A DNA stretch of 63,911 bases, the filler included, from Stramenopiles sp. TOSAG23-6 (lineage: Eukaryota), in assembly GCA_900128565.1 (NCBI GenBank). It is 3 parts of 3 records of this genome, joined end to end, with 100 filler letters (N's around TTAATTAATTAA, not from the genome) between each part and the next. Parts side by side here need not be neighbours in the genome. Positions count along the whole stretch, not along the records: positions 24,526 to 48,920 come from LT636005.1; 2 more parts are not named here. One strand, 5' to 3'. Positions 24,757-49,073 of this stretch are shown here, in pieces; within the stretch, counting starts at the first letter, position 1, and every line of letters begins with the position of its first letter. The notes below the pieces were generated by a model. It saw only the letters and a program-made list of their open reading frames with translations. It was not told the DNA's origin and searched no databases. The position numbers were made by a program, and so were the translations under genes.

Positions 24757-24946
24757 TTTAATGTATGCATGGGCTTTGATCGACCTTTGATGTAGGGCCG
24801 AACCCCCGAAGTCATGCAGCCGCCTGGCCTAGTACCGGGTACCTGACGTCTTTTCGGCAGTCAAAGTGGAGCTCAATTTTTTTTTTTTTTAAGTATGTAT
24901 CTTTCGTTCCTCGATATGATAATATAATTGCCGCAAGGCATGCCTA

Positions 24947-26221: not shown

Positions 26222-26276
26222 AGGAGAAACTGCCGCCCAGTAAGTAATAATACAAAAGATTTCTTTATAGAGCATA

Positions 26277-26341
26277 AGATCCGTTGAACTTAAACGACAG
26301 TTACGAAACTTACGAAACTGTCGTTTAAGTTCAACGGATCT
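26277..26341. repeat. perfect 26-bp inverted repeat (hairpin, 13-nt loop)
   Basis: AGATCCGTTGAACTTAAACGACAGTT (26277-26302) pairs with AACTGTCGTTTAAGTTCAACGGATCT (26316-26341). Confidence 0.95.
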
Positions 26342-26356
26342 CTTGTAAAAGTGAAT

Positions 26357-26455
26357 TACATTGTAAATGTAGCAAACATTGCAAATGCAGCAAATGTAGC
26401 AAACATTGCAAACGTAGCAAATGTAGCAAACATTGCAAATGTAGCAAATGTTACA
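26357..26455. repeat. 9-bp minisatellite (AATGTAGCA / AACATTGCA units)
   Basis: About 11 units visible directly. Confidence 0.9.
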
Positions 26456-26518
26456 TAAAAATTAACAAATTGAGAAATGTAATAAAAAATATNTTTTTTT
26501 CAAATTTTTATATAAATA

Positions 26519-29500: not shown

Positions 29501-30748
29501 CTGCGGAGGGATCAAGTCTTTGTCTTCTCCAAAAGTTCCAATTATTATTGGAACCATATCTGAAGTTTTAATGATTTCCTCCAATAGTTGTGTATCCTTT
29601 AGTTTATCTGGTGTTGGATAATCTACTTTATCTTTTGCCGCAATAGGTGATGCTGGCTGTATTGGGTCGCCAACTGTGGGTGATATATTCCCTCCTAATG
29701 CAGAAATAGTAGCGGCTATAATACGTGATCTACATTTAATATTGAACAATGGTCTGTCATAAGCAAGCTGGCGAATATTTTGTTGAATTGTCTCATCAAT
29801 ACAATCAAATCTTTGCAACCATTCATCACGTTCTGCATCCTTAACATATAAATTGATTGCCGTTTCAAGTGATGATCGATCATGTAAGACGATATTCAGA
29901 GTCCTTAGTATATCTTTACGACCGAAACCAAAATATCCTTCAATCATTTTTCGGTAAACTTTGAACGCAAAATCAGCACGTGGTCCCTCTAAACGACAAC
30001 CAGACTTCCAATTTGAAACCTCTGCGAGTGTATGATATCTCCTGCAAATATCAAAAGATTCTTTGAGCGCCACATTAATCGCTACCTTGCAAATTTGAGA
30101 CGGACTCCAAAGAACCTCTCTTTGTCCAGTGCTTGATTCCCAATGTTTCCTTTTATTGGAAATCTTTTTCAAACATGTGCCTGAAACCGTGCATTTGTGG
30201 CCATCTGTACACTCTACTTGATACATTCGCTCACTTTGTGGTGTAGTTGATGATATTACTTTCAGTACCCGGCACTCCTCCCAATAAACATCATTGTCTA
30301 TGTTTGTACTCATGGAATTCCGCGTCCGTAGCTCCGACTCAAAGCCACAATACACTTCGTGATCAAACTTGTTTGTCGCCTCTGTTGCAGTGCACAATAC
30401 TTTAGTTTTACACCCTGATATTATATAATTGTCTATGATATCTGTAACGGTCCGTTTCATTGAATCTTTCCGCACTTTTACGTCCTTAAGCTCTGGGGTA
30501 GTCTTGAACCACTTCAATACATCCGCTGTAACCGCATCTATCCAAATATCTCGTCCAAAACGAATACTACTACTTTTAGATTTGAATTCAAACGATCTAA
30601 GTATTCTTGTTGTTAAATTTCGAGCCATTCTTGGTTGCTTCACATTTTGATGGATCCTATTCGACGAAAACGGCCTCTGCCGTTGAAGTCTATCATCGTG
30701 GTGCGACAACGTTAATTCTGACACTTCCGAGTCCTTACTTTCAGACAT
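26519..30748 (-). CDS. putative RAG1/Transib/Chapaev-like DDE transposase, ~1410 aa
   Basis: Ordered motifs LSVFVD(594), LPMVLFTGND, WGPD(694)GAGARAIFG, GIWH(795)H, IFH(966), LSEKPVE(992)QHH; N-terminal Tudor-like segment; C-terminal Cys/His cluster. Residue numbers follow the 1416-aa ORF. Confidence 0.65.
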   Translation of the reverse strand: MSESKDSEVSELTLSHHDDRLQRQRPFSSNRIHQNVKQPRMARNLTTRILRSFEFKSKSSSIRFGRDIWIDAVTADVLKWFKTTPELKDVKVRKDSMKRTVTDIIDNYIISGCKTKVLCTATEATNKFDHEVYCGFESELRTRNSMSTNIDNDVYWEECRVLKVISSTTPQSERMYQVECTDGHKCTVSGTCLKKISNKRKHWESSTGQREVLWSPSQICKVAINVALKESFDICRRYHTLAEVSNWKSGCRLEGPRADFAFKVYRKMIEGYFGFGRKDILRTLNIVLHDRSSLETAINLYVKDAERDEWLQRFDCIDETIQQNIRQLAYDRPLFNIKCRSRIIAATISALGGNISPTVGDPIQPASPIAAKDKVDYPTPDKLKDTQLLEEIIKTSDMVPIIIGTFGEDKDLIPPQVLMTVIDCFMRGERGAEVTHSLKERCGPLVDNILGRLGMAGAVTAFSNAIVTAQLQSRSSARQFERIVNPKFEMARILSGFISKITKTTAELVQILKDTLPNIKLTTWSVGASNEYPHGMSISQVKVSTALSDYLLQRSKTTASHLFQCDADGNVMDIVEGAKLYLSVFVDANVVSDNSILGNYRQTMHNTLIAVKVHIGDAAEQNRTMNLLPMVLFTGNDHRIEFEQAACDGPPGGESWWTQYISILKNGLHIEGLKHTIAVEHIIWGPDGAGARAIFGFTSVGSAQDISFSGPMTRELRHFLNANGVQRFGAFIGRTGDVHDLLAKEAIAKGAAAVTELRQSTGIAFPCKLYVPGMNITDPKRISSGIWHHFSTLSKKYLAVECRLMKLRGILDPWKHHIIYHLQTPFGLQEYGTKGKMKVTGADSGKLQDLMAQPYEKLFQCNHPECLRLVKKYDNSLYKGEDGNFQFCFFDPNSYEAKGLKHLHSRFAQYRTILNCATTQEYIKCRPWVRPCMLSFQRTAAHLFGNELNTPKGGGGIFHLVEVVDEACFSEAGLAPLMLSEKPVEQHHSFRNSIVKTEVCRGGGRSRDYNTQRENMLELLHLKTFEKMARRTGAFHGKLDEALDDKTVKNEIKNEIDSSTSEVFDTPHHWGSFVDNGDKSDDDIEDDGEDVTQQEGAPTTEEFEIQRFDIGGNYEEKKHINGRTIPSRFERTSGDTVKMKLIYGKTCKCIRIRAKRYSGGCEWRYDIPFMYISAVSSKVVNSTGRGNSDSTCLIFQFAHALTVGMKESHQNRFVTLKANEVNMSNLSVAAHVKIVLDNTENAKTIHDGLCYMGSIGEYTAKCSNEVNTRDSLESEAARNAFQCQSIVDPIIILAAENPTHDVMKEAKKHQESRILSEIQAWEKTRPEQMLQDSGDYKLATGTGKWYTYECQRCSKVCSKCNEKHNLLTWLDENGSWIDELGLPHNPCPKMKKDSKLGKVQKRHCMYNSK

Positions 30749-31205
30749 TTTCCGCCAATGTTTACACACTTAACCACTCTCAGATAGTCAATTACTTACT
30801 GAATGATTTTAATTGTTTATTTTTAGTTTATCCCTTTCATCTATTCTTCATGAACAGGCAGAGACAAACCGGTAGGGTGTATGAATATGTTTTCGTAGTA
30901 GTAGGCCAAAAAAACTTTAATTTGCTACTCCACATAGGATGCCGATTTGGCCGTATACGGGCCAGGCGGCTGCATGACTTCTATAGTATACGGTATAATT
31001 TTTTTTTTTTTTACACTTTCACTGACTTGTTTCTACTGTTAAATTAATAAATTTCATGGCGGGCAATAAAATCTTTGTGAAAATTGTGAAGCGTCTGTCA
31101 TTGTCAATTCAGCCGTTCATCAATTTTAAATAAAAATTCATAGTTAAATGGTACAAATGGCACGTACCTGTTGTAAATGAAAAATAACTGGCCAAAATTA
31201 AATGC

Positions 31206-31782
31206 TTAATACTACATTAAAAACTCAAGACACAACAACCTAAAGAAGTAGCATTAAACTACATCATATAACAATACAAATACACACCCTTAGGCTTATA
31301 AACTACATTATACAATGTACTTTATTCTTAAATGAAAAAATTGTTGAAAAATATTTGTTACTTAATTGGTACGGAGTGGCACAAACCTGAAAAAAAAAGC
31401 GATCTTTTGTCCTTACCTATTCCTTTACGGAAAAGACTTTAGTCGTTCCAACCCGTTACCGGGTTCGAATAAACCTGGTGTGTACTCACACAATATATAT
31501 TACCGGCTCATATTTAAAAAGTTAATACTACATTAACAACTCAAAACACAACAACCTAAAGAAGTAGCATTAAACTACATCATATAACAATACAAATACA
31601 CACCCTTAGGCTTATAAACTACATTATACAATGTACTTTATTCTTAAATGAAAAAATTGTTGAAAAATATTTGTTACTTAATTGGTACGGAGTGGCACAA
31701 ACCTGAAAAAAAAAGCGATCTTTTGTCCTTACCTATTCCTTTACGGAAAAGACTTTAGTCGTTCCAACCCGTTACCGGGTTC
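31206..31782. repeat. pair of 261-bp near-identical direct repeats (31206-31466 and 31522-31782) with a 55-bp spacer
   Basis: Both copies run from TTAATACTACATTAA to AACCCGTTACCGGGTTC; two substitutions seen near the 5' end. Confidence 0.92.
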
Positions 31783-31975
31783 CAACCCCACAGAAATATC
31801 TTTTTGTTTAAGATTTTGTACCAAGGTTTTGTACCAAAATTTATAAAATTTCAGGGCCTTCCTTGTCACGACGTCGACGGCGGCACAGACGGTTACTGTA
31901 GCTAATGTTTACAAAGTGGTACAAACAGTAATATCTATATTTTCATATACTTTAGAAGCTTACCAACAGATAAAA

Positions 31976-32665
31976 ATGAAGATTGTGAACGATACATGTA
32001 ACCCTTTTAAATGGTTGATCATTGCGATTGCAGTTATGTTTTTTTTTGTGGGGCTTTTCTTCCTCTTTTTTTTTGTACTAGACACAACCTATTTTGATGA
32101 CGATTGCCTCGATTACGATACAGTTGCTCATTGCCATTTTTTTAAGTATGGTTATCTATACTTTTTCGGAGCTGGGATTATTACGCTTCTTATGTTGGGG
32201 TGTATTAAAGGGAATCATTACTTTGCAGATTTCAACGAACAATCAGTCACATTCGCATATGGTGGTGTCTTTACAAATACAACTATTCGAGAAGTTAATT
32301 TTCTAGATATTGAGCAACTTGGTTGGGCTATGCGGCATACAAGTTCCGGGATCAATATTTTAAATCCTCGTAAATCGATTGTTCTAAAAATACGCGGCGA
32401 AGTCCATACTTTTCAATTTCCGCCCTCCGTGTATTTTGTAAGTCTTGCTTTTCTGAATAAGGTATATAATGCACTGTCAGAAAGGTTAGTACAGGGACAA
32501 GTAGTGCAGGGACATGTTGTTCAGCCACAAAGTGTTTCTGATGTTAAACCTGTTATCGTTAATCCTGTAGCTGTTAGAGCTGTTGTTGCTAAAGCTGTTG
32601 TTGTTAATCCTGTAACAAAAGCACCCAAATCTTCAAAAGTAGATTTGAATCAGCCAAACAATTAA
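31976..32665 (+). CDS. hypothetical protein with two TM segments and a Val-rich tail
   Basis: Two hydrophobic helices; first ATG at MKIVND. Confidence 0.6.
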   Translation: MKIVNDTCNPFKWLIIAIAVMFFFVGLFFLFFFVLDTTYFDDDCLDYDTVAHCHFFKYGYLYFFGAGIITLLMLGCIKGNHYFADFNEQSVTFAYGGVFTNTTIREVNFLDIEQLGWAMRHTSSGINILNPRKSIVLKIRGEVHTFQFPPSVYFVSLAFLNKVYNALSERLVQGQVVQGHVVQPQSVSDVKPVIVNPVAVRAVVAKAVVVNPVTKAPKSSKVDLNQPNN

Positions 32666-32959
32666 CGAGTTACACCATTGTACATTGCTTCACAGAACCA
32701 ACTCGTGTAATCTGCTATGTTTCTTACTAATTAGGAGTTTAAAAAATGCCTGATATAATTTTATAAATTTTATGCTACTAGGACTAGCTAGATAAAAAAT
32801 CTTTATGTAAACATCACCTGTTTTTTTTGAAATTAATTTTAATTAATTTTTTTAAAAAATAGAGAGTCAGTGCGAGTGCGCGGCATCCGCGATCCCTCCG
32901 TCCCTTTGTTTTTATAGTTGTTTAACGCTTTAAAATAGGTACCCTGTTTATTTCACAAA

Positions 32960-34129
32960 ATGGGTTTTTACGGAGTTTTCTTTTTGATTGCATTTGTGCA
33001 ATGCACCACTATAGTTTCCTCTTCTACCGCTAGGAAAAGGACGAAGAGGACAGCTCCCCTGTGGACCGTTCCACTTGACTATAACTATCCACTTGAGTCC
33101 AATCTAGTTACGACTCAACAACTAGCACCACAAGTCATAACTTCTGAAGCGGGAGAAAGCTCTAGGGAAGCTTTACCGATGTATACACCGGGTAAACCAA
33201 GAAAAGGTATATGCTTATTCAGAATCGATGGTGTGCTTCATCAGTTAGATTTAGACAAGACGATGACAGCAAAACAAAAGAAAAATGAAAGAGATAGAAA
33301 CAGAAAAATTGTGGATGAGTGTTTGAAAAAAGACTTTGCAGTAGGAATTGTTACGGCAGGAGGCAGTTATCGTATCAAAGACCTTATAAGAGAGAGTTGG
33401 ATGCCTTCAAACTTACTGCAATACTTGAAACAAACCAACTATGAAACGTTCTCAAACATATCTAACGGTATCTATCCTTCAGATACTATGGCAGGTGACT
33501 CGAAGACGCATTACGATGGTCCAAAAGGTCACGATCTTAAGAGAGATATTTACGTTGAAGATCCAGGTTTTGAAAGATGTTTAAACGAGACCGATATTCC
33601 AAAGAGCTTAGACGAAAAAGGTGGAGGCATTCGATACGGTTGGTTAGAAGCGTATTCGTGTGTTCTAGCCGCAATGAAGCAGAACATTACAGCTCCGGAA
33701 AGAGTCATTTTATTTTTCAATACCGAATCAAAAGATATGCATGAGTATCAACTTTCATATCATCAAGGGGTAGAACATTTTAATAGTTGTTTTTTTGAAA
33801 ACGGCAAAGGTATCAACACATATTTTGGTCATTTTATTCCAAGTGAAGTGAAAGCATATTTAGAAAAAGTTGATATTTCAAAAGATGGTGATGATGAACC
33901 CAAACTACAACGAGGACCAACACGACCAGAAGAACCGGAAGGACCAAGATTGAGGCGTTCCAAACGAAGGAAAAAGGCATCATATAGAGTCTCGCATACA
34001 GCCGTTGTGTCTAAGAAATTGATAAAAAAAACACGTAGTCAAAATTTGCCAACTCAGAAAAGGCGCAGGGAAATCAAAAAAGAAAAGCAAGACGGTTTAA
34101 ATTTATTACTTGCCCTTTCAGAAACATAG
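32960..34129 (+). CDS. secreted protein with a degenerate HAD-like fold
   Basis: Signal peptide; GICLFRIDGVL (cf. hhhDxDGT), FAVGIVTAG, ERVILFFN. Confidence 0.6.
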   Translation: MGFYGVFFLIAFVQCTTIVSSSTARKRTKRTAPLWTVPLDYNYPLESNLVTTQQLAPQVITSEAGESSREALPMYTPGKPRKGICLFRIDGVLHQLDLDKTMTAKQKKNERDRNRKIVDECLKKDFAVGIVTAGGSYRIKDLIRESWMPSNLLQYLKQTNYETFSNISNGIYPSDTMAGDSKTHYDGPKGHDLKRDIYVEDPGFERCLNETDIPKSLDEKGGGIRYGWLEAYSCVLAAMKQNITAPERVILFFNTESKDMHEYQLSYHQGVEHFNSCFFENGKGINTYFGHFIPSEVKAYLEKVDISKDGDDEPKLQRGPTRPEEPEGPRLRRSKRRKKASYRVSHTAVVSKKLIKKTRSQNLPTQKRRREIKKEKQDGLNLLLALSET

Positions 34130-34434
34130 ACACATAAAAGAAACACCATTTGACTGTTGTAGATTGAGTCATCTACTGGTGTATAGTATGATGTAATACA
34201 CTATAATATACTTTATTACAGAGACAAAATAAAACGGTAATTGTAAGGGGTTACTACTGTTGTACATGTTGTGAAGATTCATCTACAATACCAACAATCC
34301 TGGATGACTATGAGGAATAACACTCTGCAAATTCAACATTCGTTGGTACGATTCTTTTAAAACCCAATTACTGACTAACTTAGATTCACTGGCGAATGTA
34401 CCAAGTAGCACAACCTCTGAGTATTGTCTTTATT

Positions 34435-35726
34435 TCACCACCATTTAGTAAAAGCATTATACCAAATTGTTACAGTTCTTTTTAGTGGACATATTATGAT
34501 GTAACAAAAGTTATGTGGGCTTGAGGTAGGAAATAATTTCACAGGTTTGTCCTCACCCGTACCATCACTAGCATTAGGTTTCTGGTACAATCCTTGAATT
34601 GCAAAAGTAAACGATGCTACTTCAATTCCTCCAGTACTAGCACTTCGATGTATTGTGAAAATATATTTTATTTTGAAAATTTTGAAAAAAAGTTATAAAA
34701 ATGTTTTTTTTTTGAAGAATATTCGATTAAAAACGAAATAAATTAAAAAAATTCAAATATGAAAAACATACATGTACAGTTAATAGATCCTTATAAAAAT
34801 GTTTTGTAATTTTTAAAATATTTTCTGTTTTATCTTCCCATTGGCACATTGCCCCACCCACTGCTAAATGTTTGAATATACGAAATAATAATTCGTTTTT
34901 CTCATCTTCAGAAAAAATCCAAAAATGTTCAGAATCTTCATCACAAAGCATCGCACGTAATACATCAGAAATTGTAACACCATCGATACAGTATAGTGAA
35001 AAATATATACATTTTTTTCTTTTTGAATAACACAAATCGGTGGATACGGAATTGAAAAAAAAAATTCAATTTTTGAAAAAAAAAATTCAATTTTTGNAAA
35101 AAAAAAATTCAATTTTTGGAAACGTACACATTTTCCATACATTTGTGTATGTAACCATGAGAACCACCTCGTGTTATCTGCTCGGTTTCGAGACGATCAA
35201 AGAAATTCATACTTGTTTTTGTTGTATAAATTGTTTCAATATTGACTTTACTAAATGTCTGTTTATGTTGTGATGAATTAGGGTTAGGGTTACCTTTTGT
35301 GTCTTTTGTGTCTTTTGGGAATTGAAAAGAATTTTGAAAAGCTGCTGAATTAAAAACACCAAGTAAGAACTTTTCTATATAGTAGTTATCTGTGGTACAA
35401 TTCGTTTTCGAAACTTTTGAAACATCAAATTTCTCCGAAAAGCTATAGCGTTTGAGTTGCCAAAACGTATCTAAATTCCACTTTTTTAACATGAATAAAT
35501 TATCCTTGTTTTCAAACGTTGGTACTGAATCTCCGATAAAAGTTAAATGAAAGTTACTTGGTTCATTTATTGTATTCACGTTGTCTTTTACACTGTCAGA
35601 ACTTGTTTTATCGTGTACAAAGTTAGAACTTGTTTCATCTTTTGCATTTGTTTTTGAGCTTTCAGATTCATCTTTTACTGTTATGGTTTTGTCGTACATA
35701 TTCATTGTTTTTGTATCTGAAGGCAT
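34435..35726 (-). CDS. CFAP300: cilia- and flagella-associated protein 300 (C11orf70 family); introns 34989-35127 and 34648-34771
   Basis: SMNFFDRL, ISDVLRAML, FSEDEKNELLFRIFKHLAVGGAMCQWED, TKHFYKDLLTVH|RS..., HNFCYIIICPLKRTVTIWY. Confidence 0.9.
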
Positions 35727-37719
35727 TGCTTTTGCTTTTTTTTGAAAATCGTTGTCAATGTATAAAATAATTGTTGTTATGTATTATTATTATTATTATT
35801 ATTATTATTAGGAAGAAAAATTGACTACTATGGAAACAACAGAGTTTCAACCCAAATAAATACACGATGTAGACCCTCAAGTAGACAGTGTGTTGTTGTT
35901 TTTTGGAGGAGGAGCTCAACGTCTTTTTCCTTTTTCCGGGAAATATTTGCAGTTTGCAACTCACGTGAGACAGCGACGTTTTCGAGATTTCGTGTTTGGT
36001 CATTTTGTCAATTCGGGACTTTGGNTTTTTCGTATTNGTATACAATTTCCTAGTTAAATAGATATAGAGACNAAATACANAACAATGCATTGAATGAGAT
36101 ACATTATTTTTAAGCCACAAATACCAAACTTTGCAGGTGCGCTTGATCTATATCCAATAGGCGGAATCCCGGCGCATAGCTTCGTAGGTACTCGGGAAAG
36201 CTTATTTTTACGCTAATATGCTTCAAAAATAGAAGGATTTACCGTAGGTAGCAGAAATGGTTCAATTGGAAAATATCATCCACTAAGTGTATATTCGTGG
36301 AACTTGTATACAATACAAGGTTATATTCTCGTATTATATATATACTGGGGACGCTGTGCAACGCTACAGCATTGTATTCGTTTGATAAAGGACATTTCGA
36401 AGGGATTTTCTTATAAAAAGTGGCAAATTGGCAGTGGTATAAATCGATTGAAAATGGTACTATTTTTGCACTTACTGTCAATGATTATGAAAGTTGAGTA
36501 TAATCTAAAATTAGATTCACCATTGATTGGTAGATATAAAATGACATGCAAACGTAGAGCTTCGTAGGTGGTTGGCAAGTTGCGTTTAAGGGATAATATT
36601 GTNNNNNNNNNNNNNNNNNNNNNNNNNNNNNNNNNNNNNNNNNNNNNNNNNNNNNNNNNNNNNNNNNNNNNNNNNNNNNNNNNNNNNNNNNNNNNNNNNN
36701 NNNNNNNNNNNNNNNNNNNNNNNNNNNNNNNNNNNNNNNNNNNNNNNNNNNNNNNNNNNNNNNNNNNNNNNNNNNNNNNNNNNNNNNNNNNNNNNNNNNN
36801 NNNNNNNNNNNNNNNNNNNNNNNNNNNNNNNNNNNNNNNNNNNACAATATTATCCCTTAAACGCAACTTGCCAACCACCTACGAAGCTCTACGTTTGCAT
36901 GTCATTTTATATCTACCAATCAATGGTGAATCTAATTTTAGATTATACTCAACTTTCATAATCATTGACAGTAAGTGCAAAAATAGTACCATTTTCAATC
37001 GATTTATACCACTGCCAATTTGCCACTTTTTATAAGAAAATCCCTTCGAAATGTCCTTTATCAAACGAATACAATGCTGTAGCGTTGCACAGCGTCCCCA
37101 GTATATATATAATACGAGAATATAACCTTGTATTGTATACAAGTTCCACGAATATACACTTAGTGGATGATATTTTCCAATTGAACCATTTCTGCTACCT
37201 ACGGTAAATCCTTCTATTTTTGAAGCATATTAGCGTAAAAATAAGCTTTCCCGAGTACCTACGAAGCTATGCGCCGGGATTCCGCCTATTGGATATAGAT
37301 CAAGCGCACCTGCAAAGTTTGGTATTTGTGGCTTAAAAATAATGTATCTCATTCAATGCATTGTTNTGTATTTNGTCTCTATATCTATTTAACTAGGAAA
37401 TTGTATACNAATACGAAAAANCCAAAGTCCCGAATTGACAAAATGACCAAACACGAAATCTCGAAAACGTCGCTGTCTCACGTGAGTTGCAAACTGCAAA
37501 TATTTCCCGGAAAAAGGAAAAAGACGTTGAGCTCCTCCTCCAAAAAACAACAACACACTGTCTACTTGAGGGTCTACATCGTGTATTTATTTGGGTTGAA
37601 ACTCTGTTGTTTCCATAGTAGTCAATTTTTCTTCCTAATAATAATAATAATAATAATAATAATACATAACAACAATTATTTTATACATTGACAACGATTT
37701 TCAAAAAAAAGCAAAAGCA

Positions 37720-39011
37720 ATGCCTTCAGATACAAAAACAATGAATATGTACGACAAAACCATAACAGTAAAAGATGAATCTGAAAGCTCAAAAACAAAT
37801 GCAAAAGATGAAACAAGTTCTAACTTTGTACACGATAAAACAAGTTCTGACAGTGTAAAAGACAACGTGAATACAATAAATGAACCAAGTAACTTTCATT
37901 TAACTTTTATCGGAGATTCAGTACCAACGTTTGAAAACAAGGATAATTTATTCATGTTAAAAAAGTGGAATTTAGATACGTTTTGGCAACTCAAACGCTA
38001 TAGCTTTTCGGAGAAATTTGATGTTTCAAAAGTTTCGAAAACGAATTGTACCACAGATAACTACTATATAGAAAAGTTCTTACTTGGTGTTTTTAATTCA
38101 GCAGCTTTTCAAAATTCTTTTCAATTCCCAAAAGACACAAAAGACACAAAAGGTAACCCTAACCCTAATTCATCACAACATAAACAGACATTTAGTAAAG
38201 TCAATATTGAAACAATTTATACAACAAAAACAAGTATGAATTTCTTTGATCGTCTCGAAACCGAGCAGATAACACGAGGTGGTTCTCATGGTTACATACA
38301 CAAATGTATGGAAAATGTGTACGTTTCCAAAAATTGAATTTTTTTTTTNCAAAAATTGAATTTTTTTTTTCAAAAATTGAATTTTTTTTTTCAATTCCGT
38401 ATCCACCGATTTGTGTTATTCAAAAAGAAAAAAATGTATATATTTTTCACTATACTGTATCGATGGTGTTACAATTTCTGATGTATTACGTGCGATGCTT
38501 TGTGATGAAGATTCTGAACATTTTTGGATTTTTTCTGAAGATGAGAAAAACGAATTATTATTTCGTATATTCAAACATTTAGCAGTGGGTGGGGCAATGT
38601 GCCAATGGGAAGATAAAACAGAAAATATTTTAAAAATTACAAAACATTTTTATAAGGATCTATTAACTGTACATGTATGTTTTTCATATTTGAATTTTTT
38701 TAATTTATTTCGTTTTTAATCGAATATTCTTCAAAAAAAAAACATTTTTATAACTTTTTTTCAAAATTTTCAAAATAAAATATATTTTCACAATACATCG
38801 AAGTGCTAGTACTGGAGGAATTGAAGTAGCATCGTTTACTTTTGCAATTCAAGGATTGTACCAGAAACCTAATGCTAGTGATGGTACGGGTGAGGACAAA
38901 CCTGTGAAATTATTTCCTACCTCAAGCCCACATAACTTTTGTTACATCATAATATGTCCACTAAAAAGAACTGTAACAATTTGGTATAATGCTTTTACTA
39001 AATGGTGGTGA
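37720..39011 (+). CDS. CFAP300: CFAP300, mirror copy; exons 37720-38318, 38458-38674 and 38799-39011
   Basis: Reverse complement of 34435-35726. Confidence 0.9.
38319..38457 (+). other. non-canonical intron GT...TG (or GT...AC if shifted 2 nt upstream), 139 nt; mirror 34989-35127
   Basis: AATGT|GTACGTTT...TATATTTTTCACTATACTG|TATCGAT gives KCMENVIDGVTISD. Confidence 0.75.
38675..38798 (+). other. non-canonical intron GT...AT, 124 nt; mirror 34648-34771
   Basis: GTACAT|GTATGTTTT...TATATTTTCACAATACAT|CGAAGT; the nearest downstream AGs are out of frame. Confidence 0.88.
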
Positions 39012-39316
39012 AATAAAGACAATACTCAGAGGTTGTGCTACTTGGTACATTCGCCAGTGAATCTAAGTTAGTCAGTAATTGGGTTTTAAAAGAATCGTAC
39101 CAACGAATGTTGAATTTGCAGAGTGTTATTCCTCATAGTCATCCAGGATTGTTGGTATTGTAGATGAATCTTCACAACATGTACAACAGTAGTAACCCCT
39201 TACAATTACCGTTTTATTTTGTCTCTGTAATAAAGTATATTATAGTGTATTACATCATACTATACACCAGTAGATGACTCAATCTACAACAGTCAAATGG
39301 TGTTTCTTTTATGTGT

Positions 39317-40486
39317 CTATGTTTCTGAAAGGGCAAGTAATAAATTTAAACCGTCTTGCTTTTCTTTTTTGATTTCCCTGCGCCTTTTCTGAGTTGGCAA
39401 ATTTTGACTACGTGTTTTTTTTATCAATTTCTTAGACACAACGGCTGTATGCGAGACTCTATATGATGCCTTTTTCCTTCGTTTGGAACGCCTCAATCTT
39501 GGTCCTTCCGGTTCTTCTGGTCGTGTTGGTCCTCGTTGTAGTTTGGGTTCATCATCACCATCTTTTGAAATATCAACTTTTTCTAAATATGCTTTCACTT
39601 CACTTGGAATAAAATGACCAAAATATGTGTTGATACCTTTGCCGTTTTCAAAAAAACAACTATTAAAATGTTCTACCCCTTGATGATATGAAAGTTGATA
39701 CTCATGCATATCTTTTGATTCGGTATTGAAAAATAAAATGACTCTTTCCGGAGCTGTAATGTTCTGCTTCATTGCGGCTAGAACACACGAATACGCTTCT
39801 AACCAACCGTATCGAATGCCTCCACCTTTTTCGTCTAAGCTCTTTGGAATATCGGTCTCGTTTAAACATCTTTCAAAACCTGGATCTTCAACGTAAATAT
39901 CTCTCTTAAGATCGTGACCTTTTGGACCATCGTAATGCGTCTTCGAGTCACCTGCCATAGTATCTGAAGGATAGATACCGTTAGATATGTTTGAGAACGT
40001 TTCATAGTTGGTTTGTTTCAAGTATTGCAGTAAGTTTGAAGGCATCCAACTCTCTCTTATAAGGTCTTTGATACGATAACTGCCTCCTGCCGTAACAATT
40101 CCTACTGCAAAGTCTTTTTTCAAACACTCATCCACAATTTTTCTGTTTCTATCTCTTTCATTTTTCTTTTGTTTTGCTGTCATCGTCTTGTCTAAATCTA
40201 ACTGATGAAGCACACCATCGATTCTGAATAAGCATATACCTTTTCTTGGTTTACCCGGTGTATACATCGGTAAAGCTTCCCTAGAGCTTTCTCCCGCTTC
40301 AGAAGTTATGACTTGTGGTGCTAGTTGTTGAGTCGTAACTAGATTGGACTCAAGTGGATAGTTATAGTCAAGTGGAACGGTCCACAGGGGAGCTGTCCTC
40401 TTCGTCCTTTTCCTAGCGGTAGAAGAGGAAACTATAGTGGTGCATTGCACAAATGCAATCAAAAAGAAAACTCCGTAAAAACCCAT
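39317..40486 (-). CDS. HAD-like secreted protein, mirror copy
   Basis: Reverse complement of 32960-34129. Confidence 0.6.
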   Translation of the reverse strand: MGFYGVFFLIAFVQCTTIVSSSTARKRTKRTAPLWTVPLDYNYPLESNLVTTQQLAPQVITSEAGESSREALPMYTPGKPRKGICLFRIDGVLHQLDLDKTMTAKQKKNERDRNRKIVDECLKKDFAVGIVTAGGSYRIKDLIRESWMPSNLLQYLKQTNYETFSNISNGIYPSDTMAGDSKTHYDGPKGHDLKRDIYVEDPGFERCLNETDIPKSLDEKGGGIRYGWLEAYSCVLAAMKQNITAPERVILFFNTESKDMHEYQLSYHQGVEHFNSCFFENGKGINTYFGHFIPSEVKAYLEKVDISKDGDDEPKLQRGPTRPEEPEGPRLRRSKRRKKASYRVSHTAVVSKKLIKKTRSQNLPTQKRRREIKKEKQDGLNLLLALSET

Positions 40487-40780
40487 TTTGTGAAATAAAC
40501 AGGGTACCTATTTTAAAGCGTTAAACAACTATAAAAACAAAGGGACGGAGGGATCGCGGATGCCGCGCACTCGCACTGACTCTCTATTTTTTAAAAAAAT
40601 TAATTAAAATTAATTTCAAAAAAAACAGGTGATGTTTACATAAAGATTTTTTATCTAGCTAGTCCTAGTAGCATAAAATTTATAAAATTATATCAGGCAT
40701 TTTTTAAACTCCTAATTAGTAAGAAACATAGCAGATTACACGAGTTGGTTCTGTGAAGCAATGTACAATGGTGTAACTCG

Positions 40781-41470
40781 TTAATTGTTTGGCTGATTCA
40801 AATCTACTTTTGAAGATTTGGGTGCTTTTGTTACAGGATTAACAACAACAGCTTTAGCAACAACAGCTCTAACAGCTACAGGATTAACGATAACAGGTTT
40901 AACATCAGAAACACTTTGTGGCTGAACAACATGTCCCTGCACTACTTGTCCCTGTACTAACCTTTCTGACAGTGCATTATATACCTTATTCAGAAAAGCA
41001 AGACTTACAAAATACACGGAGGGCGGAAATTGAAAAGTATGGACTTCGCCGCGTATTTTTAGAACAATCGATTTACGAGGATTTAAAATATTGATCCCGG
41101 AACTTGTATGCCGCATAGCCCAACCAAGTTGCTCAATATCTAGAAAATTAACTTCTCGAATAGTTGTATTTGTAAAGACACCACCATATGCGAATGTGAC
41201 TGATTGTTCGTTGAAATCTGCAAAGTAATGATTCCCTTTAATACACCCCAACATAAGAAGCGTAATAATCCCAGCTCCGAAAAAGTATAGATAACCATAC
41301 TTAAAAAAATGGCAATGAGCAACTGTATCGTAATCGAGGCAATCGTCATCAAAATAGGTTGTGTCTAGTACAAAAAAAAAGAGGAAGAAAAGCCCCACAA
41401 AAAAAAACATAACTGCAATCGCAATGATCAACCATTTAAAAGGGTTACATGTATCGTTCACAATCTTCAT
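40781..41470 (-). CDS. 2-TM hypothetical protein, mirror copy
   Basis: Reverse complement of 31976-32665. Confidence 0.6.
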   Translation of the reverse strand: MKIVNDTCNPFKWLIIAIAVMFFFVGLFFLFFFVLDTTYFDDDCLDYDTVAHCHFFKYGYLYFFGAGIITLLMLGCIKGNHYFADFNEQSVTFAYGGVFTNTTIREVNFLDIEQLGWAMRHTSSGINILNPRKSIVLKIRGEVHTFQFPPSVYFVSLAFLNKVYNALSERLVQGQVVQGHVVQPQSVSDVKPVIVNPVAVRAVVAKAVVVNPVTKAPKSSKVDLNQPNN

Positions 41471-42697
41471 TTTTATCTGTTGGTAAGCTTCTAAAGTATA
41501 TGAAAATATAGATATTACTGTTTGTACCACTTTGTAAACATTAGCTACAGTAACCGTCTGTGCCGCCGTCGACGTCGTGACAAGGAAGGCCCTGAAATTT
41601 TATAAATTTTGGTACAAAACCTTGGTACAAAATCTTAAACAAAAAGATATTTCTGTGGGGTTGGAACCCGGTAACGGGTTGGAACGACTAAAGTCTTTTC
41701 CGTAAAGGAATAGGTAAGGACAAAAGATCGCTTTTTTTTTCAGGTTTGTGCCACTCCGTACCAATTAAGTAACAAATATTTTTCAACAATTTTTTCATTT
41801 AAGAATAAAGTACATTGTATAATGTAGTTTATAAGCCTAAGGGTGTGTATTTGTATTGTTATATGATGTAGTTTAATGCTACTTCTTTAGGTTGTTGTGT
41901 TTTGAGTTGTTAATGTAGTATTAACTTTTTAAATATGAGCCGGTAATATATATTGTGTGAGTACACACCAGGTTTATTCGAACCCGGTAACGGGTTGGAA
42001 CGACTAAAGTCTTTTCCGTAAAGGAATAGGTAAGGACAAAAGATCGCTTTTTTTTTCAGGTTTGTGCCACTCCGTACCAATTAAGTAACAAATATTTTTC
42101 AACAATTTTTTCATTTAAGAATAAAGTACATTGTATAATGTAGTTTATAAGCCTAAGGGTGTGTATTTGTATTGTTATATGATGTAGTTTAATGCTACTT
42201 CTTTAGGTTGTTGTGTCTTGAGTTTTTAATGTAGTATTAAGCATTTAATTTTGGCCAGTTATTTTTCATTTACAACAGGTACGTGCCATTTGTACCATTT
42301 AACTATGAATTTTTATTTAAAATTGATGAACGGCTGAATTGACAATGACAGACGCTTCACAATTTTCACAAAGATTTTATTGCCCGCCATGAAATTTATT
42401 AATTTAACAGTAGAAACAAGTCAGTGAAAGTGTAAAAAAAAAAAAAATTATACCGTATACTATAGAAGTCATGCAGCCGCCTGGCCCGTATACGGCCAAA
42501 TCGGCATCCTATGTGGAGTAGCAAATTAAAGTTTTTTTGGCCTACTACTACGAAAACATATTCATACACCCTACCGGTTTGTCTCTGCCTGTTCATGAAG
42601 AATAGATGAAAGGGATAAACTAAAAATAAACAATTAAAATCATTCAGTAAGTAATTGACTATCTGAGAGTGGTTAAGTGTGTAAACATTGGCGGAAA

Positions 42698-45600
42698 ATG
42701 TCTGAAAGTAAGGACTCGGAAGTGTCAGAATTAACGTTGTCGCACCACGATGATAGACTTCAACGGCAGAGGCCGTTTTCGTCGAATAGGATCCATCAAA
42801 ATGTGAAGCAACCAAGAATGGCTCGAAATTTAACAACAAGAATACTTAGATCGTTTGAATTCAAATCTAAAAGTAGTAGTATTCGTTTTGGACGAGATAT
42901 TTGGATAGATGCGGTTACAGCGGATGTATTGAAGTGGTTCAAGACTACCCCAGAGCTTAAGGACGTAAAAGTGCGGAAAGATTCAATGAAACGGACCGTT
43001 ACAGATATCATAGACAATTATATAATATCAGGGTGTAAAACTAAAGTATTGTGCACTGCAACAGAGGCGACAAACAAGTTTGATCACGAAGTGTATTGTG
43101 GCTTTGAGTCGGAGCTACGGACGCGGAATTCCATGAGTACAAACATAGACAATGATGTTTATTGGGAGGAGTGCCGGGTACTGAAAGTAATATCATCAAC
43201 TACACCACAAAGTGAGCGAATGTATCAAGTAGAGTGTACAGATGGCCACAAATGCACGGTTTCAGGCACATGTTTGAAAAAGATTTCCAATAAAAGGAAA
43301 CATTGGGAATCAAGCACTGGACAAAGAGAGGTTCTTTGGAGTCCGTCTCAAATTTGCAAGGTAGCGATTAATGTGGCGCTCAAAGAATCTTTTGATATTT
43401 GCAGGAGATATCATACACTCGCAGAGGTTTCAAATTGGAAGTCTGGTTGTCGTTTAGAGGGACCACGTGCTGATTTTGCGTTCAAAGTTTACCGAAAAAT
43501 GATTGAAGGATATTTTGGTTTCGGTCGTAAAGATATACTAAGGACTCTGAATATCGTCTTACATGATCGATCATCACTTGAAACGGCAATCAATTTATAT
43601 GTTAAGGATGCAGAACGTGATGAATGGTTGCAAAGATTTGATTGTATTGATGAGACAATTCAACAAAATATTCGCCAGCTTGCTTATGACAGACCATTGT
43701 TCAATATTAAATGTAGATCACGTATTATAGCCGCTACTATTTCTGCATTAGGAGGGAATATATCACCCACAGTTGGCGACCCAATACAGCCAGCATCACC
43801 TATTGCGGCAAAAGATAAAGTAGATTATCCAACACCAGATAAACTAAAGGATACACAACTATTGGAGGAAATCATTAAAACTTCAGATATGGTTCCAATA
43901 ATAATTGGAACTTTTGGAGAAGACAAAGACTTGATCCCTCCGCAGGTTTTGATGACTGTAATTGATTGCTTCATGCGAGGTGAGCGTGGAGCTGAAGTTA
44001 CACATTCACTCAAGGAAAGGTGTGGGCCATTAGTTGATAATATACTTGGTCGTTTAGGAATGGCTGGAGCTGTTACTGCGTTTTCAAATGCCATAGTAAC
44101 GGCTCAATTGCAATCACGATCTAGTGCAAGACAATTTGAAAGAATAGTAAATCCCAAATTTGAGATGGCACGTATTTTATCTGGCTTTATCTCAAAGATA
44201 ACAAAAACCACTGCTGAATTGGTACAAATACTAAAAGACACACTACCAAATATAAAGCTGACGACATGGTCAGTTGGTGCATCCAATGAGTATCCCCATG
44301 GGATGAGTATATCACAGGTGAAAGTTAGCACAGCGCTTTCAGATTATCTGTTGCAACGCTCCAAAACAACAGCATCTCATTTATTTCAGTGTGATGCTGA
44401 TGGCAATGTTATGGATATTGTTGAAGGTGCCAAGTTGTATCTAAGTGTTTTTGTAGACGCCAATGTTGTTTCAGATAATTCAATACTTGGCAACTATAGA
44501 CAAACAATGCACAATACTCTCATTGCAGTCAAAGTTCATATTGGCGATGCAGCAGAACAAAACAGAACAATGAATCTACTACCTATGGTATTGTTCACTG
44601 GAAATGATCATCGTATCGAATTTGAACAAGCTGCTTGTGATGGGCCTCCTGGTGGCGAGTCATGGTGGACGCAATATATTTCTATTTTGAAGAATGGTCT
44701 ACACATTGAAGGTTTGAAGCATACTATTGCTGTTGAGCATATTATCTGGGGTCCTGATGGTGCTGGTGCTCGAGCCATATTCGGCTTTACTAGTGTTGGA
44801 AGTGCTCAAGATATTTCATTTTCAGGACCAATGACACGAGAATTACGCCATTTTCTAAATGCAAATGGGGTGCAACGGTTCGGTGCATTTATTGGAAGAA
44901 CAGGTGATGTACATGATTTGCTTGCTAAAGAAGCAATAGCTAAGGGAGCTGCTGCTGTGACTGAATTGAGACAATCCACAGGAATTGCGTTTCCCTGCAA
45001 ACTATATGTACCTGGTATGAATATCACAGATCCAAAAAGAATTTCAAGTGGTATCTGGCACCACTTTTCAACGCTTTCAAAGAAGTATCTTGCCGTTGAA
45101 TGCCGTTTAATGAAATTACGAGGTATACTTGATCCTTGGAAGCACCACATAATTTATCATCTTCAAACGCCGTTTGGGCTTCAAGAATATGGTACAAAAG
45201 GGAAAATGAAAGTAACAGGAGCTGACTCGGGAAAACTTCAAGATTTAATGGCACAGCCATATGAAAAACTATTTCAATGCAATCATCCAGAGTGTTTACG
45301 GCTTGTGAAAAAATATGACAACTCTCTTTATAAAGGTGAAGATGGCAATTTCCAGTTCTGTTTCTTTGATCCAAATAGTTACGAAGCTAAAGGACTGAAA
45401 CATTTGCATTCAAGATTTGCTCAATATAGAACAATACTTAATTGTGCTACTACACAGGAGTATATCAAGTGCCGGCCATGGGTGCGACCATGTATGCTTT
45501 CATTTCAGCGAACTGCAGCACACCTTTTTGGTAATGAATTGAACACACCAAAAGGTGGAGGTGGAATATTTCATCTTGTTGAGGTTGTTGATGAAGCATG

Positions 45601-46927
45601 TTTTTCTGAAGCAGGATTGGCACCGCTAATGCTTAGTGAAAAACCTGTAGAGCAGCATCACTCTTTCCGTAATTCTATAGTTAAAACAGAAGTATGCCGA
45701 GGCGGTGGCCGTAGTAGAGATTACAATACTCAACGGGAAAATATGCTTGAGCTCCTGCACCTAAAGACATTTGAAAAGATGGCGAGGAGGACTGGTGCAT
45801 TCCATGGAAAGCTAGATGAAGCACTTGATGATAAAACAGTTAAAAATGAAATTAAAAATGAAATTGATTCTAGCACCAGTGAAGTCTTTGATACACCACA
45901 TCATTGGGGATCATTTGTAGATAATGGAGATAAATCTGATGATGATATTGAAGATGACGGTGAAGATGTTACCCAACAAGAAGGTGCACCTACCACTGAA
46001 GAATTCGAAATACAACGTTTTGATATTGGAGGAAATTATGAAGAGAAGAAACATATAAATGGCCGCACAATACCATCAAGATTCGAACGTACCTCTGGAG
46101 ATACTGTGAAAATGAAGCTTATTTATGGAAAGACTTGCAAATGCATCAGAATTAGAGCTAAAAGATATAGTGGCGGTTGTGAATGGCGTTATGACATACC
46201 ATTTATGTATATATCTGCTGTAAGTAGCAAAGTAGTGAATTCAACAGGTCGTGGTAATAGTGACAGTACATGTCTTATCTTTCAGTTTGCACATGCATTA
46301 ACAGTTGGAATGAAAGAATCTCATCAGAATAGATTTGTAACACTGAAAGCAAATGAGGTGAATATGTCAAATCTATCCGTTGCTGCACATGTAAAGATAG
46401 TATTGGATAATACTGAAAATGCAAAGACAATCCATGATGGTTTATGCTATATGGGTTCAATTGGCGAGTACACCGCAAAGTGCAGTAATGAAGTGAATAC
46501 TAGAGATAGTCTTGAGTCAGAAGCAGCTCGAAATGCATTTCAATGTCAAAGTATAGTTGACCCCATTATTATCTTGGCGGCAGAAAATCCTACACATGAT
46601 GTAATGAAAGAAGCAAAGAAACATCAAGAAAGTAGAATTTTGAGCGAGATACAAGCATGGGAAAAGACAAGGCCGGAGCAAATGTTGCAAGATTCCGGGG
46701 ACTATAAGCTTGCTACTGGTACGGGTAAATGGTATACTTATGAGTGTCAACGTTGCTCAAAGGTTTGTTCAAAATGTAATGAGAAGCATAATCTTCTTAC
46801 ATGGCTGGATGAAAACGGCTCATGGATAGATGAACTGGGGCTACCGCATAACCCGTGCCCCAAAATGAAGAAGGACTCTAAACTTGGAAAGGTACAGAAG
46901 AGACATTGCATGTATAATAGCAAGTAA
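42698..46927 (+). CDS. putative DDE transposase, mirror copy
   Basis: Reverse complement of 26519-30748. Confidence 0.65.
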   Translation: MSESKDSEVSELTLSHHDDRLQRQRPFSSNRIHQNVKQPRMARNLTTRILRSFEFKSKSSSIRFGRDIWIDAVTADVLKWFKTTPELKDVKVRKDSMKRTVTDIIDNYIISGCKTKVLCTATEATNKFDHEVYCGFESELRTRNSMSTNIDNDVYWEECRVLKVISSTTPQSERMYQVECTDGHKCTVSGTCLKKISNKRKHWESSTGQREVLWSPSQICKVAINVALKESFDICRRYHTLAEVSNWKSGCRLEGPRADFAFKVYRKMIEGYFGFGRKDILRTLNIVLHDRSSLETAINLYVKDAERDEWLQRFDCIDETIQQNIRQLAYDRPLFNIKCRSRIIAATISALGGNISPTVGDPIQPASPIAAKDKVDYPTPDKLKDTQLLEEIIKTSDMVPIIIGTFGEDKDLIPPQVLMTVIDCFMRGERGAEVTHSLKERCGPLVDNILGRLGMAGAVTAFSNAIVTAQLQSRSSARQFERIVNPKFEMARILSGFISKITKTTAELVQILKDTLPNIKLTTWSVGASNEYPHGMSISQVKVSTALSDYLLQRSKTTASHLFQCDADGNVMDIVEGAKLYLSVFVDANVVSDNSILGNYRQTMHNTLIAVKVHIGDAAEQNRTMNLLPMVLFTGNDHRIEFEQAACDGPPGGESWWTQYISILKNGLHIEGLKHTIAVEHIIWGPDGAGARAIFGFTSVGSAQDISFSGPMTRELRHFLNANGVQRFGAFIGRTGDVHDLLAKEAIAKGAAAVTELRQSTGIAFPCKLYVPGMNITDPKRISSGIWHHFSTLSKKYLAVECRLMKLRGILDPWKHHIIYHLQTPFGLQEYGTKGKMKVTGADSGKLQDLMAQPYEKLFQCNHPECLRLVKKYDNSLYKGEDGNFQFCFFDPNSYEAKGLKHLHSRFAQYRTILNCATTQEYIKCRPWVRPCMLSFQRTAAHLFGNELNTPKGGGGIFHLVEVVDEACFSEAGLAPLMLSEKPVEQHHSFRNSIVKTEVCRGGGRSRDYNTQRENMLELLHLKTFEKMARRTGAFHGKLDEALDDKTVKNEIKNEIDSSTSEVFDTPHHWGSFVDNGDKSDDDIEDDGEDVTQQEGAPTTEEFEIQRFDIGGNYEEKKHINGRTIPSRFERTSGDTVKMKLIYGKTCKCIRIRAKRYSGGCEWRYDIPFMYISAVSSKVVNSTGRGNSDSTCLIFQFAHALTVGMKESHQNRFVTLKANEVNMSNLSVAAHVKIVLDNTENAKTIHDGLCYMGSIGEYTAKCSNEVNTRDSLESEAARNAFQCQSIVDPIIILAAENPTHDVMKEAKKHQESRILSEIQAWEKTRPEQMLQDSGDYKLATGTGKWYTYECQRCSKVCSKCNEKHNLLTWLDENGSWIDELGLPHNPCPKMKKDSKLGKVQKRHCMYNSK

Positions 46928-47224
46928 TATTTATATAAAAATTTGAAAAAAANATATTTTTTATTACATTTCTCAATTTGTTAATTTTTATGTAACATTT
47001 GCTACATTTGCAATGTTTGCTACATTTGCTACGTTTGCAATGTTTGCTACATTTGCTGCATTTGCAATGTTTGCTACATTTACAATGTAATTCACTTTTA
47101 CAAGAGATCCGTTGAACTTAAACGACAGTTTCGTAAGTTTCGTAACTGTCGTTTAAGTTCAACGGATCTTATGCTCTATAAAGAAATCTTTTGTATTATT
47201 ACTTACTGGGCGGCAGTTTCTCCT

Positions 47225-48499: not shown

Positions 48500-48920
48500 T
48501 AGGCATGCCTTGCGGCAATTATATTATCATATCGAGGAACGAAAGATACATACTTAAAAAAAAAAAAAATTGAGCTCCACTTTGACTGCCGAAAAGACGT
48601 CAGGTACCCGGTACTAGGCCAGGCGGCTGCATGACTTCGGGGGTTCGGCCCTACATCAAAGGTCGATCAAAGCCCATGCATACATTAAAATGATTCAGTT
48701 TATACTATGTACAATGTTACTTGCATCTTCATGTGTATGTCATATTGAAGCAGCTACTACGAGAACTTTTCGAATTACCCCGGCTGGTCGTCGTCGTCGT
48801 CGCAAGAAGTGTGGTGGTTGTGGTTGTTGGGCTTGTGGTGGTAATGCGAAGGCTCGGGAGGCAGATGCGGCGGCTGCGGAAGAGGAGGAACGTCGGGCTG
48901 GTGCGCGAATCATTAAGGCT

Positions 48921-49020
48921 NNNNNNNNNNNNNNNNNNNNNNNNNNNNNNNNNNNNNNNNNNNNTTAATTAATTAANNNNNNNNNNNNNNNNNNNNNNNN
49001 NNNNNNNNNNNNNNNNNNNN
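48921..49020. other. artificial scaffold linker
   Basis: N44-TTAATTAATTAA-N44. Confidence 0.97.
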
Positions 49021-49073
49021 ACAAAATTTCGTACGAAAAAAAAATAAATTTGAAATTCATAATGAAAACGTAC
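49021..49073 (-). other. 5' part of a family intron, truncated by the contig end
   Basis: GAT|GTACGTTTTCATTATGAATTTCAAATTTA(T9)CGTACGAAATTTTGT. Confidence 0.85.

Follow-up and report, generated by a model that had tools for sequence, protein, structure and literature searches.

Why should introns of one genome begin with an ordinary GT and end, in copy after copy, in AT instead of AG, and does the AT that stands directly before several of them account for that end? The question is raised by the second intron of a CFAP300 gene in Stramenopiles sp. TOSAG23-6 (assembly GCA_900128565.1), which occupies positions 38675-38798 on the plus strand of a stretch of 63,911 nucleotides (nt), referred to here as the window. 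A first-pass annotation had read such boundaries as those of a mini-element with GTA...TAC ends and a 2-base-pair AT target duplication, one splice site possibly being co-opted from the duplicate. Our analysis places the CFAP300 intron in a repeated and probably self-spreading family of introns, for which 3' ends that truly lack AG are well supported at the protein level. We consider the chances slightly better than even that this is a high-copy, introner-like family of spliceosomal introns that carry their own splice signals, with a non-AG 3' cut set by its distance from a motif, and that the upstream AT is a preference and nothing more.

Ten copies of the family were annotated in the window, seven of them complete, and nine genes carry one. 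They are given below with their boundaries (cuts marked by a slash, exon in lower case where abbreviated) and, where available, the E value against the family profile.

38675-38798, plus strand: CFAP300 intron 2, 124 nt, GT-AT, phase 0, a diverged family member; ...ACTGTACAT/GTATGTTTTT...TTTTCACAATACAT/CGAAGT, the upstream exon ending in GTACAT; nhmmer E = 4.6e-4
38673-38674, plus strand: exonic AT directly before CFAP300 intron 2, the same as the final two bases of the intron
38319-38457, plus strand: CFAP300 intron 1, 139 nt, GTACGTTTCC...TTTTTCACTATACTG, GT-TG, with a 21-nt tandem repeat (x3.3) and one N; atgt/GTACG...CTATACTG/
34648-34771 and 34989-35127, minus strand: mirror copies of CFAP300 introns 2 and 1 in an inverted duplicate block
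673-767, plus strand: gene 1 intron, 95 nt, GTTCGTTTTT...CACAATGAAT, GT-AT, phase 0, with the family core; tgat/GTTCG...CACAATGAAT/; E = 1.4e-10
5520-5644, minus strand: TPR-gene intron, 125 nt, GTACGTTTTCAT...ACCATACAT, upstream GT, GT-AT, with the core and a duplicated 3' block; gcgt/GTACG...CCATACAT/; E = 4.8e-11
10708-10902, minus strand: HEAT-repeat gene intron, 195 nt, GTACGTTTTCAT...CATATTACAT, with a 36-nt tandem repeat (x3); tcat/GTACG...CATATTACAT/
22579-22679, minus strand: LRR-gene intron, 101 nt, GTATGTTTTA...TTTTCACAACACAT, GT-AT, phase 0, with the family core; gtat/GTATG...CACAACACAT/; E = 4e-14
24364-24425, plus strand: kinase-gene intron, 5' half, upstream GA, cut by a linker, downstream exons outside the window
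49021-49073, minus strand: GrpE-gene intron, 5' half, upstream AT, cut by a linker, downstream exons outside the window
50666-50757, plus strand: intron of a weakly thioesterase-like gene, 92 nt, GTACGTTTTCAT...TTTTCACCTACAAAT, upstream TT, GT-AT, phase 1; tctt/GTACG...CTACAAAT/; E = 2.1e-9
1-57, plus strand: family intron at the window start, 3' half, ...CCAAAATAC followed by TT, 3' end approximate; E = 1e-9

All seven complete introns read at their boundaries as the first-pass annotation had given them, and the CFAP300 gene is where these boundaries can be fixed most closely. In Pfam coordinates its exon 1 runs to position 118 (Asn) and its exon 2 from 121 (Asp) to 191 (His), while the fourth residue of exon 3 falls at 195; exactly two residues therefore stand between Asn and Asp and three before Ser, so that removal must take out exactly 139 and 124 nt. 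P0001, the nearest relative among the proteins of the collection, is 67% identical to CFAP300 exon 2 and is colinear over both junctions (KC.E.V.DG and TVHRS.S.GGI). It is encoded by an uninterrupted frame of 318 amino acids on a contig of 1546 nt, which may be DNA or RNA, and was the one longer protein found when the collection was searched with exon 2, none of near length being returned. The first junction contains exactly two residues in most of 125 aligned relatives, these being the sequences of at least 200 amino acids from the 150 best representatives of 765 relatives.

GT/GC-AG solutions that stay in frame and free of stops were enumerated exhaustively up to 45 nt on either side of the boundaries. 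Such solutions were found for six of the seven complete introns and for the LRR intron there was none. Those for the two CFAP300 introns would add 10 residues or delete about eight, and are contradicted by the Pfam profile, by P0001 and by the 125 homologues. The GT-AG alternative for the TPR intron breaks the 34-residue repeat spacing, which is preserved over the junction adopted here, the Pfam matches in this case being weak (E about 0.01-0.1). Canonical alternatives exist as well for the gene 1, HEAT and thioesterase introns, whose chosen boundaries rest on frame and family likeness; the gene 1 intron is placed by its two reading frames, and the exons flanking the thioesterase intron show weak Pfam matches to 4HBT and FlK. 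Six of the seven complete copies break a reading frame which their removal restores exactly. The remaining one, in the HEAT-repeat gene, is in frame and stop-free, and its status as an intron comes from family likeness only, namely an exact 12-nt 5' block and a 3' block.

The ends of the copies agree with this picture. All nine 5' ends in the window have GT and read GT[A/T][C/T][G/A]TTT, and at the 3' end each of the positions from -15 to -1 is conserved in four to seven of the seven complete copies. Six of these seven end in AT and CFAP300 intron 1 ends in TG; the copy at the window start apparently ends in TT. The distance from CAC to the cut is 7 nt in six complete copies and 8 nt in the thioesterase copy. 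AG dinucleotides number 12 in the introns against 23.7 expected (P = 0.002, a figure inflated by the relatedness of the copies), and in metagenome copies the bases after ...ATAC are most often AT (consensus of 6 and 20 contigs, agreement 0.44-0.52). The earlier claim that the 3' end is not AG is thus borne out by the Pfam coordinates, by the LRR intron with no canonical alternative and by the alignment of the family.

That the introns are element-like, as had also been claimed, is well supported. The ten copies (92-195 nt, AT-rich) belong to one sequence family, and an alignment of nine of them shows a 12-nt 5' block (GTAYGTTTTCAT), a core of about 35 nt (ATGAATTTC, a T-run and CGTACGAAATTTTGTACCTAAC) and an 18-20-nt 3' block, (GAA)ATATTTTT-CAC-AAYAC-AT, in which the final two bases are variable. 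The kinase and GrpE copies are identical at 52 of 53 nt, against 3 of 30 nt in the exons upstream of them, and the TPR copy is 83-85% identical to both. A search of the window with the family profile returned nine places, one of them mirrored, with E values from 4e-14 to 4.6e-4; all are genic and in sense orientation, and in about 51.6 kb of unique sequence no copy was found outside genes or antisense. The 12-mer GTAYGTTTTCAT has eight matches in the window with at most one mismatch, a number reached by none of 100 shuffles, and five of the eight are intron starts. Two further matches, at 45492 and 60859, were rejected as intron starts since they lie in ordinary coding sequence. Repeated introns of this sort in unrelated genes go by the name of introners or introner-like elements in the literature (PMC12130899, PMC11282704).

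The abundance of the family is also seen beyond the window. Contigs of two DNA and two RNA-library runs (X7, X9, X3 and X4) were matched to window positions 1-20000, which include the gene 1, TPR and HEAT introns, and 606-3197 contigs per run were matched. Summed depth in these runs reached 997-9547 in the two bins that hold the core and 0-39 elsewhere; such depths are totals over contigs, to which more than one organism may contribute, and do not give a copy number. The family core is a very common sequence in the sampled seawaters. Metagenome contigs diverge from the window exactly at the core edges, and many match places 4-55 of the copy at the window start and then diverge. The contig ends at 1, 24425 and 49021 all fall inside the core, as would follow from the behaviour of an assembler at a high-copy repeat. 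Among the joints listed for window 1-20000, none is an intron-less DNA joint.

A further partial copy was found on the public metagenome contig L001, where acat/GTATGTTTTA... leads into the same core from a 5' GT. This contig (L001:1-1076) opens with an exon-like frame and a family intron that is present over its 5' two thirds, then passes into unrelated AT-rich sequence and an adaptor-like end, and is probably chimeric. A second metagenome locus (L002), picked up with a 19-nt core pattern, was rejected as a chance match in bacterial genes. Both CFAP300 introns and the HEAT intron retain only the end blocks of the family. Internal tandem duplications enlarge three introns, those of the TPR gene (5529-5566, 20-nt unit), the HEAT-repeat gene (10721-10830, 36-nt unit) and CFAP300 intron 1 (38324-38394, 21-nt unit). 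Copies reduced to end blocks and copies with tandem duplications look like older family members.

What we infer from the DNA on splicing at the RNA level, on the distance rule, on the branch site and on the mode of spread may be put together as follows. The family would have been copied into coding exons of many unrelated genes, always in sense, each element bringing its own signals: the 5' block GTAYGTTTTCAT, the core with its T-run and CGTACGAAATTTTGTACCTAAC, a T-tract, and the 3' block ATATTTTT-CAC-AAYAC-NN. The 5' cut would be made at the invariant GT and the 3' cut, with no AG, 2 nt beyond the conserved AC and 7 nt beyond CAC. As the last two bases are usually AT but also TG and apparently TT, the 3' site is most likely set by the distance from a motif carried by the intron. 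The exonic AT would reflect a preference at the insertion site or on the 5' exon side of the splice site, and its match to the terminal AT would be a coincidence of two consensus positions. DNA transposition and reverse splicing would both be compatible with the spread.

Three candidate branch sites were noted. One is a CTAAC-type motif in the core, about 38 nt upstream of the 3' end and followed by T-tracts, which is lost in older copies. The second is TTTGA at about -21, and the third is TTCAC at -9, the only one kept in all copies, which fits yUnAy.

Several observations weigh against this reading. No spliced RNA joint was among those listed, the 15 joints listed of 48 (window 1-20000) being repeat cross-matches, and in one RNA-library contig (X7 record 17, 733-966) the gene 1 intron is crossed at its 3' end without splicing. 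Over-representation of the core is equally strong in RNA libraries and DNA runs, which fits either carry-over of DNA or poor splicing. Only seven copies are complete, and they are related, so that the counts per position are not independent. The distance rule has exceptions in the thioesterase copy, with its 8 nt after CAC, and in the copy at the window start, where the spacing differs, and the presence of three candidate branch motifs (near -38, near -21 and at -9) leaves more than one choice. The argument from Val and Cys at CFAP300 intron 1, given below, draws on a single near relative and on an alignment column that varies. Beyond the family itself, we tentatively propose, and rate a little below even, that the working spliceosome of this lineage has given up the AG rule and measures the 3' cut from CAC-AAYAC plus 2 nt, and that one self-propagating family supplied most or all of the introns.

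Among the other explanations, the one that survives best is the duplication already mentioned, which we nevertheless regard as unlikely. A DNA element resembling a miniature inverted-repeat transposable element (MITE), with GTA...TAC ends, would insert at AT and duplicate it, and splicing would remove the element together with one copy of AT, so that the 3' site is the co-opted duplicate. The same AT does stand on both sides of CFAP300 intron 2 and of the LRR, HEAT and gene 1 introns (four of the seven complete copies), just as the first-pass annotation had it, and upstream AT is enriched, with five of nine window copies against a background of 9.7% (binomial p = 8e-4). The family is clearly repeated, and the single-base mismatches in the TPR and thioesterase genes fall at synonymous third positions. 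Precedents are found in PMC11282704, which reports a 3' AG derived from the duplication in Micromonas IE1 and an exonic TAC before Fritillaria introns. Consensus ends of ATGTA...TACAT match each other over about 5 nt. The claim of inverted ends held only for some copies: the match extends over 6+6 nt in CFAP300 intron 2 alone and over 4-5 nt in the LRR, HEAT and TPR introns, and it is essentially absent from the gene 1 and thioesterase introns and from CFAP300 intron 1.

A duplicated target should nonetheless make the two flanks vary together, and they do not. The dinucleotides upstream of the seven complete copies are AT, GT, AT, AT, GT, AT and TT and the last two intron bases, in the same order, are AT, AT, AT, AT, TG, AT and AT. 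These agree in four of seven cases against about 3.4 expected from the margins (permutation p = 0.43, a weak test with seven copies), and none of the three flanks other than AT (GT, GT and TT) matches its 3' end (AT, TG and AT). The kinase copy has GA upstream where the nearly identical GrpE copy has AT. For CFAP300 intron 1, already recognised in the first-pass annotation as a misfit with GT upstream and TG at its end, a TGT/TGT repeat would need the removal of 140 nt where the profile and the frame require 139. Direct repeats at any other offset or register show no excess among the seven complete copies. The terminal AT is conserved no better than the adjacent bases of the 3' block (six of seven copies at both -2 and -1), which makes it look like part of the element's own terminus and tells against a 3' site taken from a duplication. 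The inverted ends do not exceed 6 nt, and the absence of antisense or intergenic copies noted above counts in the same direction. In favour of a duplication it may be said that the sample is small, and that a fixed AT target with later drift would be compatible with it. Enrichment of the upstream AT without co-variation of the flanks points to a preference in insertion or on the exon side of splicing, and not to a 2-base-pair duplication.

Distinctly less probable is a shift of the splice register, in which the introns would belong to the AT-AC class and be cut 2 nt upstream at both ends (/ATGTAYG...AYAC/). A terminal A...C pair is an established alternative to G...G. The shift gives exact AT-AC solutions at -2/-2 for the HEAT and LRR introns and CFAP300 intron 2, and AC is conserved at -4/-3 in five of the seven copies. 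The first-pass annotation had held the two registers to be indistinguishable from DNA in most cases, and this is borne out where AT stands on both sides, registers 0, -1 and -2 yielding the same mRNA in these introns. The other four complete copies, however, give GT-AC twice, AT-GA and TT-AA under the shift, and AT would be found at five of nine 5' ends, whereas the unshifted register yields GT at all seven complete copies (nine of nine with the half copies) and AT at six of seven complete 3' ends.

CFAP300 intron 1 allows a choice at the protein level, the codon reading Val in register 0 and Cys in register -2. Val is what P0001 has at this position, and in the family column the eight commonest residues of 125 (Y 30, V 21, D 14, I 12, F 10, M 10, E 5 and T 5) do not include Cys. 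An end of this intron in AT, three bases downstream, was also considered and rejected, since a residue needed by both profile and family would be lost. CFAP300 intron 1 thus most likely ends in TG, which would mean that the terminal dinucleotide is not fixed. The 5' motif of U12-type introns, RTATCCTT, lies at 12 places in the window and never at a break of a reading frame. This count exceeds the 4.7 expected (1 of 100 shuffles reaches 12), and the occurrences are mostly antisense to the local gene.

Removal by something other than a spliceosome appears more improbable still. The copies would then be insertions that disrupt genes, DNA that is eliminated somatically, or introns removed by pairing of their ends as in the non-conventional introns of euglenids and diplonemids. 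The missing spliced joints and the unspliced contig would be accommodated, as would the short complementary ends of some copies and the in-frame, stop-free HEAT copy. Against it, the ten copies in about 51.6 kb are all in sense, they all begin with a yeast-like GTAYGT, and removal restores the frame in six of seven. The five introns tested fold no more stably than their shuffles (z = 0.57, 0.25, -0.92, 0.17 and -0.06), a terminal helix is present in only two of the five minimum-energy folds, and folding thus gave no support to an end-to-end RNA helix; with an invariant GT, the features of euglenid and diplonemid introns were not found here. A contig of a DNA metagenome (X3 record 1) holds the gene 1 intron intact, and the genes of the window have a standard-looking code and long open frames, unlike most ciliates.

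There is only a very remote chance that these are ordinary GT-AG introns with misplaced boundaries or artefacts of assembly, for although six of seven introns have a canonical solution nearby and the scaffold has obvious artefacts, none exists for the LRR intron, those for the CFAP300 introns and, on weak Pfam matches, for the TPR intron fail as set out above, and the intron sequences recur in independent metagenome contigs (X3 record 1, 0 differences).

The genomic setting of the family of spliceosomal introns preferred here is that of a eukaryotic, gene-dense and intron-poor window with 28-41% G+C and open frames of up to 1506 codons. Pfam matches were found to CFAP300, GrpE, PPR, LRR/TPR, HEAT, sphingolipid desaturase and kinase, among others. 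Linkers of 44 N, TTAATTAATTAA and 44 N occupy 24426-24525 and 48921-49020, and 241 N occupy 36603-36843. Positions 24526-36602 match 36844-48920 exactly in reverse complement, forming an inverted duplicate of about 12.3 kb with the 241 N between its arms, which looks like the same contig placed twice in the scaffold rather than a natural palindrome. CFAP300 intron 2 lies within one arm and so has its second copy at 34648-34771 on the minus strand. Neither of the flanking genes, kinase to the left and GrpE to the right, runs on into the duplicate.

Public runs with DNA of the window comprise the 2015 organism-labelled set and seawater or marine metagenomes, together with two metatranscriptome runs that hold small shares (0.10 and 0.07). 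One contig of 10,925 nt from a seawater metagenome (X3 record 8) covers about 8.3 kb on 11691-20000 with 49 other letters, and another of 776 nt (X3 record 1) matches the window with 0 differences. Long near-identical contigs in two seawater metagenomes place the organism, or one closely related to it, in seawater.

Some other features of the window were also recorded. A 93-nt tandem repeat (x5.6, 97% matches) at 2410-2927 forms an AT-rich spacer between the desaturase gene and the divergent next gene; it holds strings like GTATG... and ...TACAT and has no match to the intron profile. At 59700-59720 on the minus strand a cofilin/filament-like frame (59702-61267) overlaps the next frame (58897-59802) out of phase at an A run, which is probably a homopolymer length error and not an intron. 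A G+C-rich stretch of low complexity at 48800-48920 (mirror 24526-24646) stands at the end of the duplicated contig, unlike the AT-rich rest. The duplicated block also contains, between genes, a 316-nt direct repeat (x1.8, 99% matches) at 41664-42240 (mirror 31206-31782).

No route to bursts of intron gain other than introners is known to us. We know of only a few cases in which introners and non-canonical splice sites occur together (Fritillaria, Amoebophrya and dinoflagellates), all of them messy. The present family has retained a textbook 5' site and changed only the 3' rule, in a compact, intron-poor genome and in short copies that can be aligned. It would make testable both the choice of a 3' splice site without AG and whether tolerance of the spliceosome came before or after invasion by introners. 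If the AG rule has indeed been abandoned, the family would be a case of introner invasion with a changed 3' code that is independent of, and cleaner than, those of Fritillaria and Amoebophrya. In practical terms, gene prediction that admits only GT-AG introns will cut short or wrongly join a considerable part of this organism's genes, and assemblers break contigs inside the family introns. Literature searches, which did not extend to supplements where single-cell genome papers (PMC5269757, PMC5778133) could hold intron tables, turned up no account of the family, nor of GT-AT/TG introns as a class in heterotrophic protists of the sea.

The introners of Micromonas pusilla and Aureococcus (Huff et al. 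2016 via PMC11282704; PMC12130899) are, like the present introns, near-identical short introns that lie in sense in unrelated genes, bring at least one splice site of their own and break assemblies. They have GT/GC-AG ends, clear target duplications of at least 3 nt, terminal inverted repeats and one splice site derived from the duplication (PMC11282704, PMC12130899), whereas in our family the 3' end is non-AG, the duplication test fails and the inverted ends reach 6 nt at most. The MITE-derived introns of Fritillaria borealis (Henriet et al. 2019 via PMC11282704) share with it non-AG 3' ends (AC, AT) and an exonic motif that resembles the intron end, but their 5' ends are AG and their ends are highly diverse, in contrast to the invariant 5' GTAYGT and the long conserved 3' block seen here. 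Amoebophrya (PMC7789003) is likewise a marine protist with repeated introns and non-canonical borders; its introners have hairpin-forming inverted repeats of 8-20 nt, direct repeats of 3-5 nt and no consistent terminal dinucleotides, whereas ours have a fixed GT, no significant fold and no direct-repeat signal.

Introns of the U12 type, including the expanded set of Physarum (10.1101/2020.10.12.336362; PMC1557818), have in common with the present ones an extended T-rich 5' motif, a flexible 3' dinucleotide and a conserved motif at a short, fixed distance from the 3' end; among mammalian introns GT-AT and GT-TG are rare but functional forms (PMC1557818). The 5' motif here is GTAYGTTTT as opposed to RTATCCTT or RTATCTTT, and [A/G]TATCCTT was found at none of the nine 5' ends in the window. 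The U12 branch motif TCCTTAAC is absent at about 10-15 nt from the 3' end, where the 3' block reads T5-CAC-AAYAC-NN, and no TTTGA branch motif stands at the matching position; an Rfam search of the window returned no matches. Introns of the U12 type are a minority, whereas all introns seen in the window are of the present type. The introns of Giardia and Trichomonas, with their fused branch-site and 3'-site motif CT[A/G]ACACACAG (PMC10711314), are also found in an intron-poor setting with a GTATGT-like 5' site, a conserved A/C-rich 3' motif and a gap of just 7-9 nt between a branch-like YNAY and the cut, a likeness in spacing that we draw by our own comparison and do not put forward as homology. 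They end in AG, are few and do not form a repeated family, and the fused-looking 3' block of our introns ends in AT, TG or TT where the fused motif ends in AG. In its behaviour the family thus resembles both minor-spliceosome introns and the fused-motif introns of Giardia and Trichomonas, although the motifs that define the two classes were not found in it. The known kind to which it is closest is that of introners with non-canonical ends.

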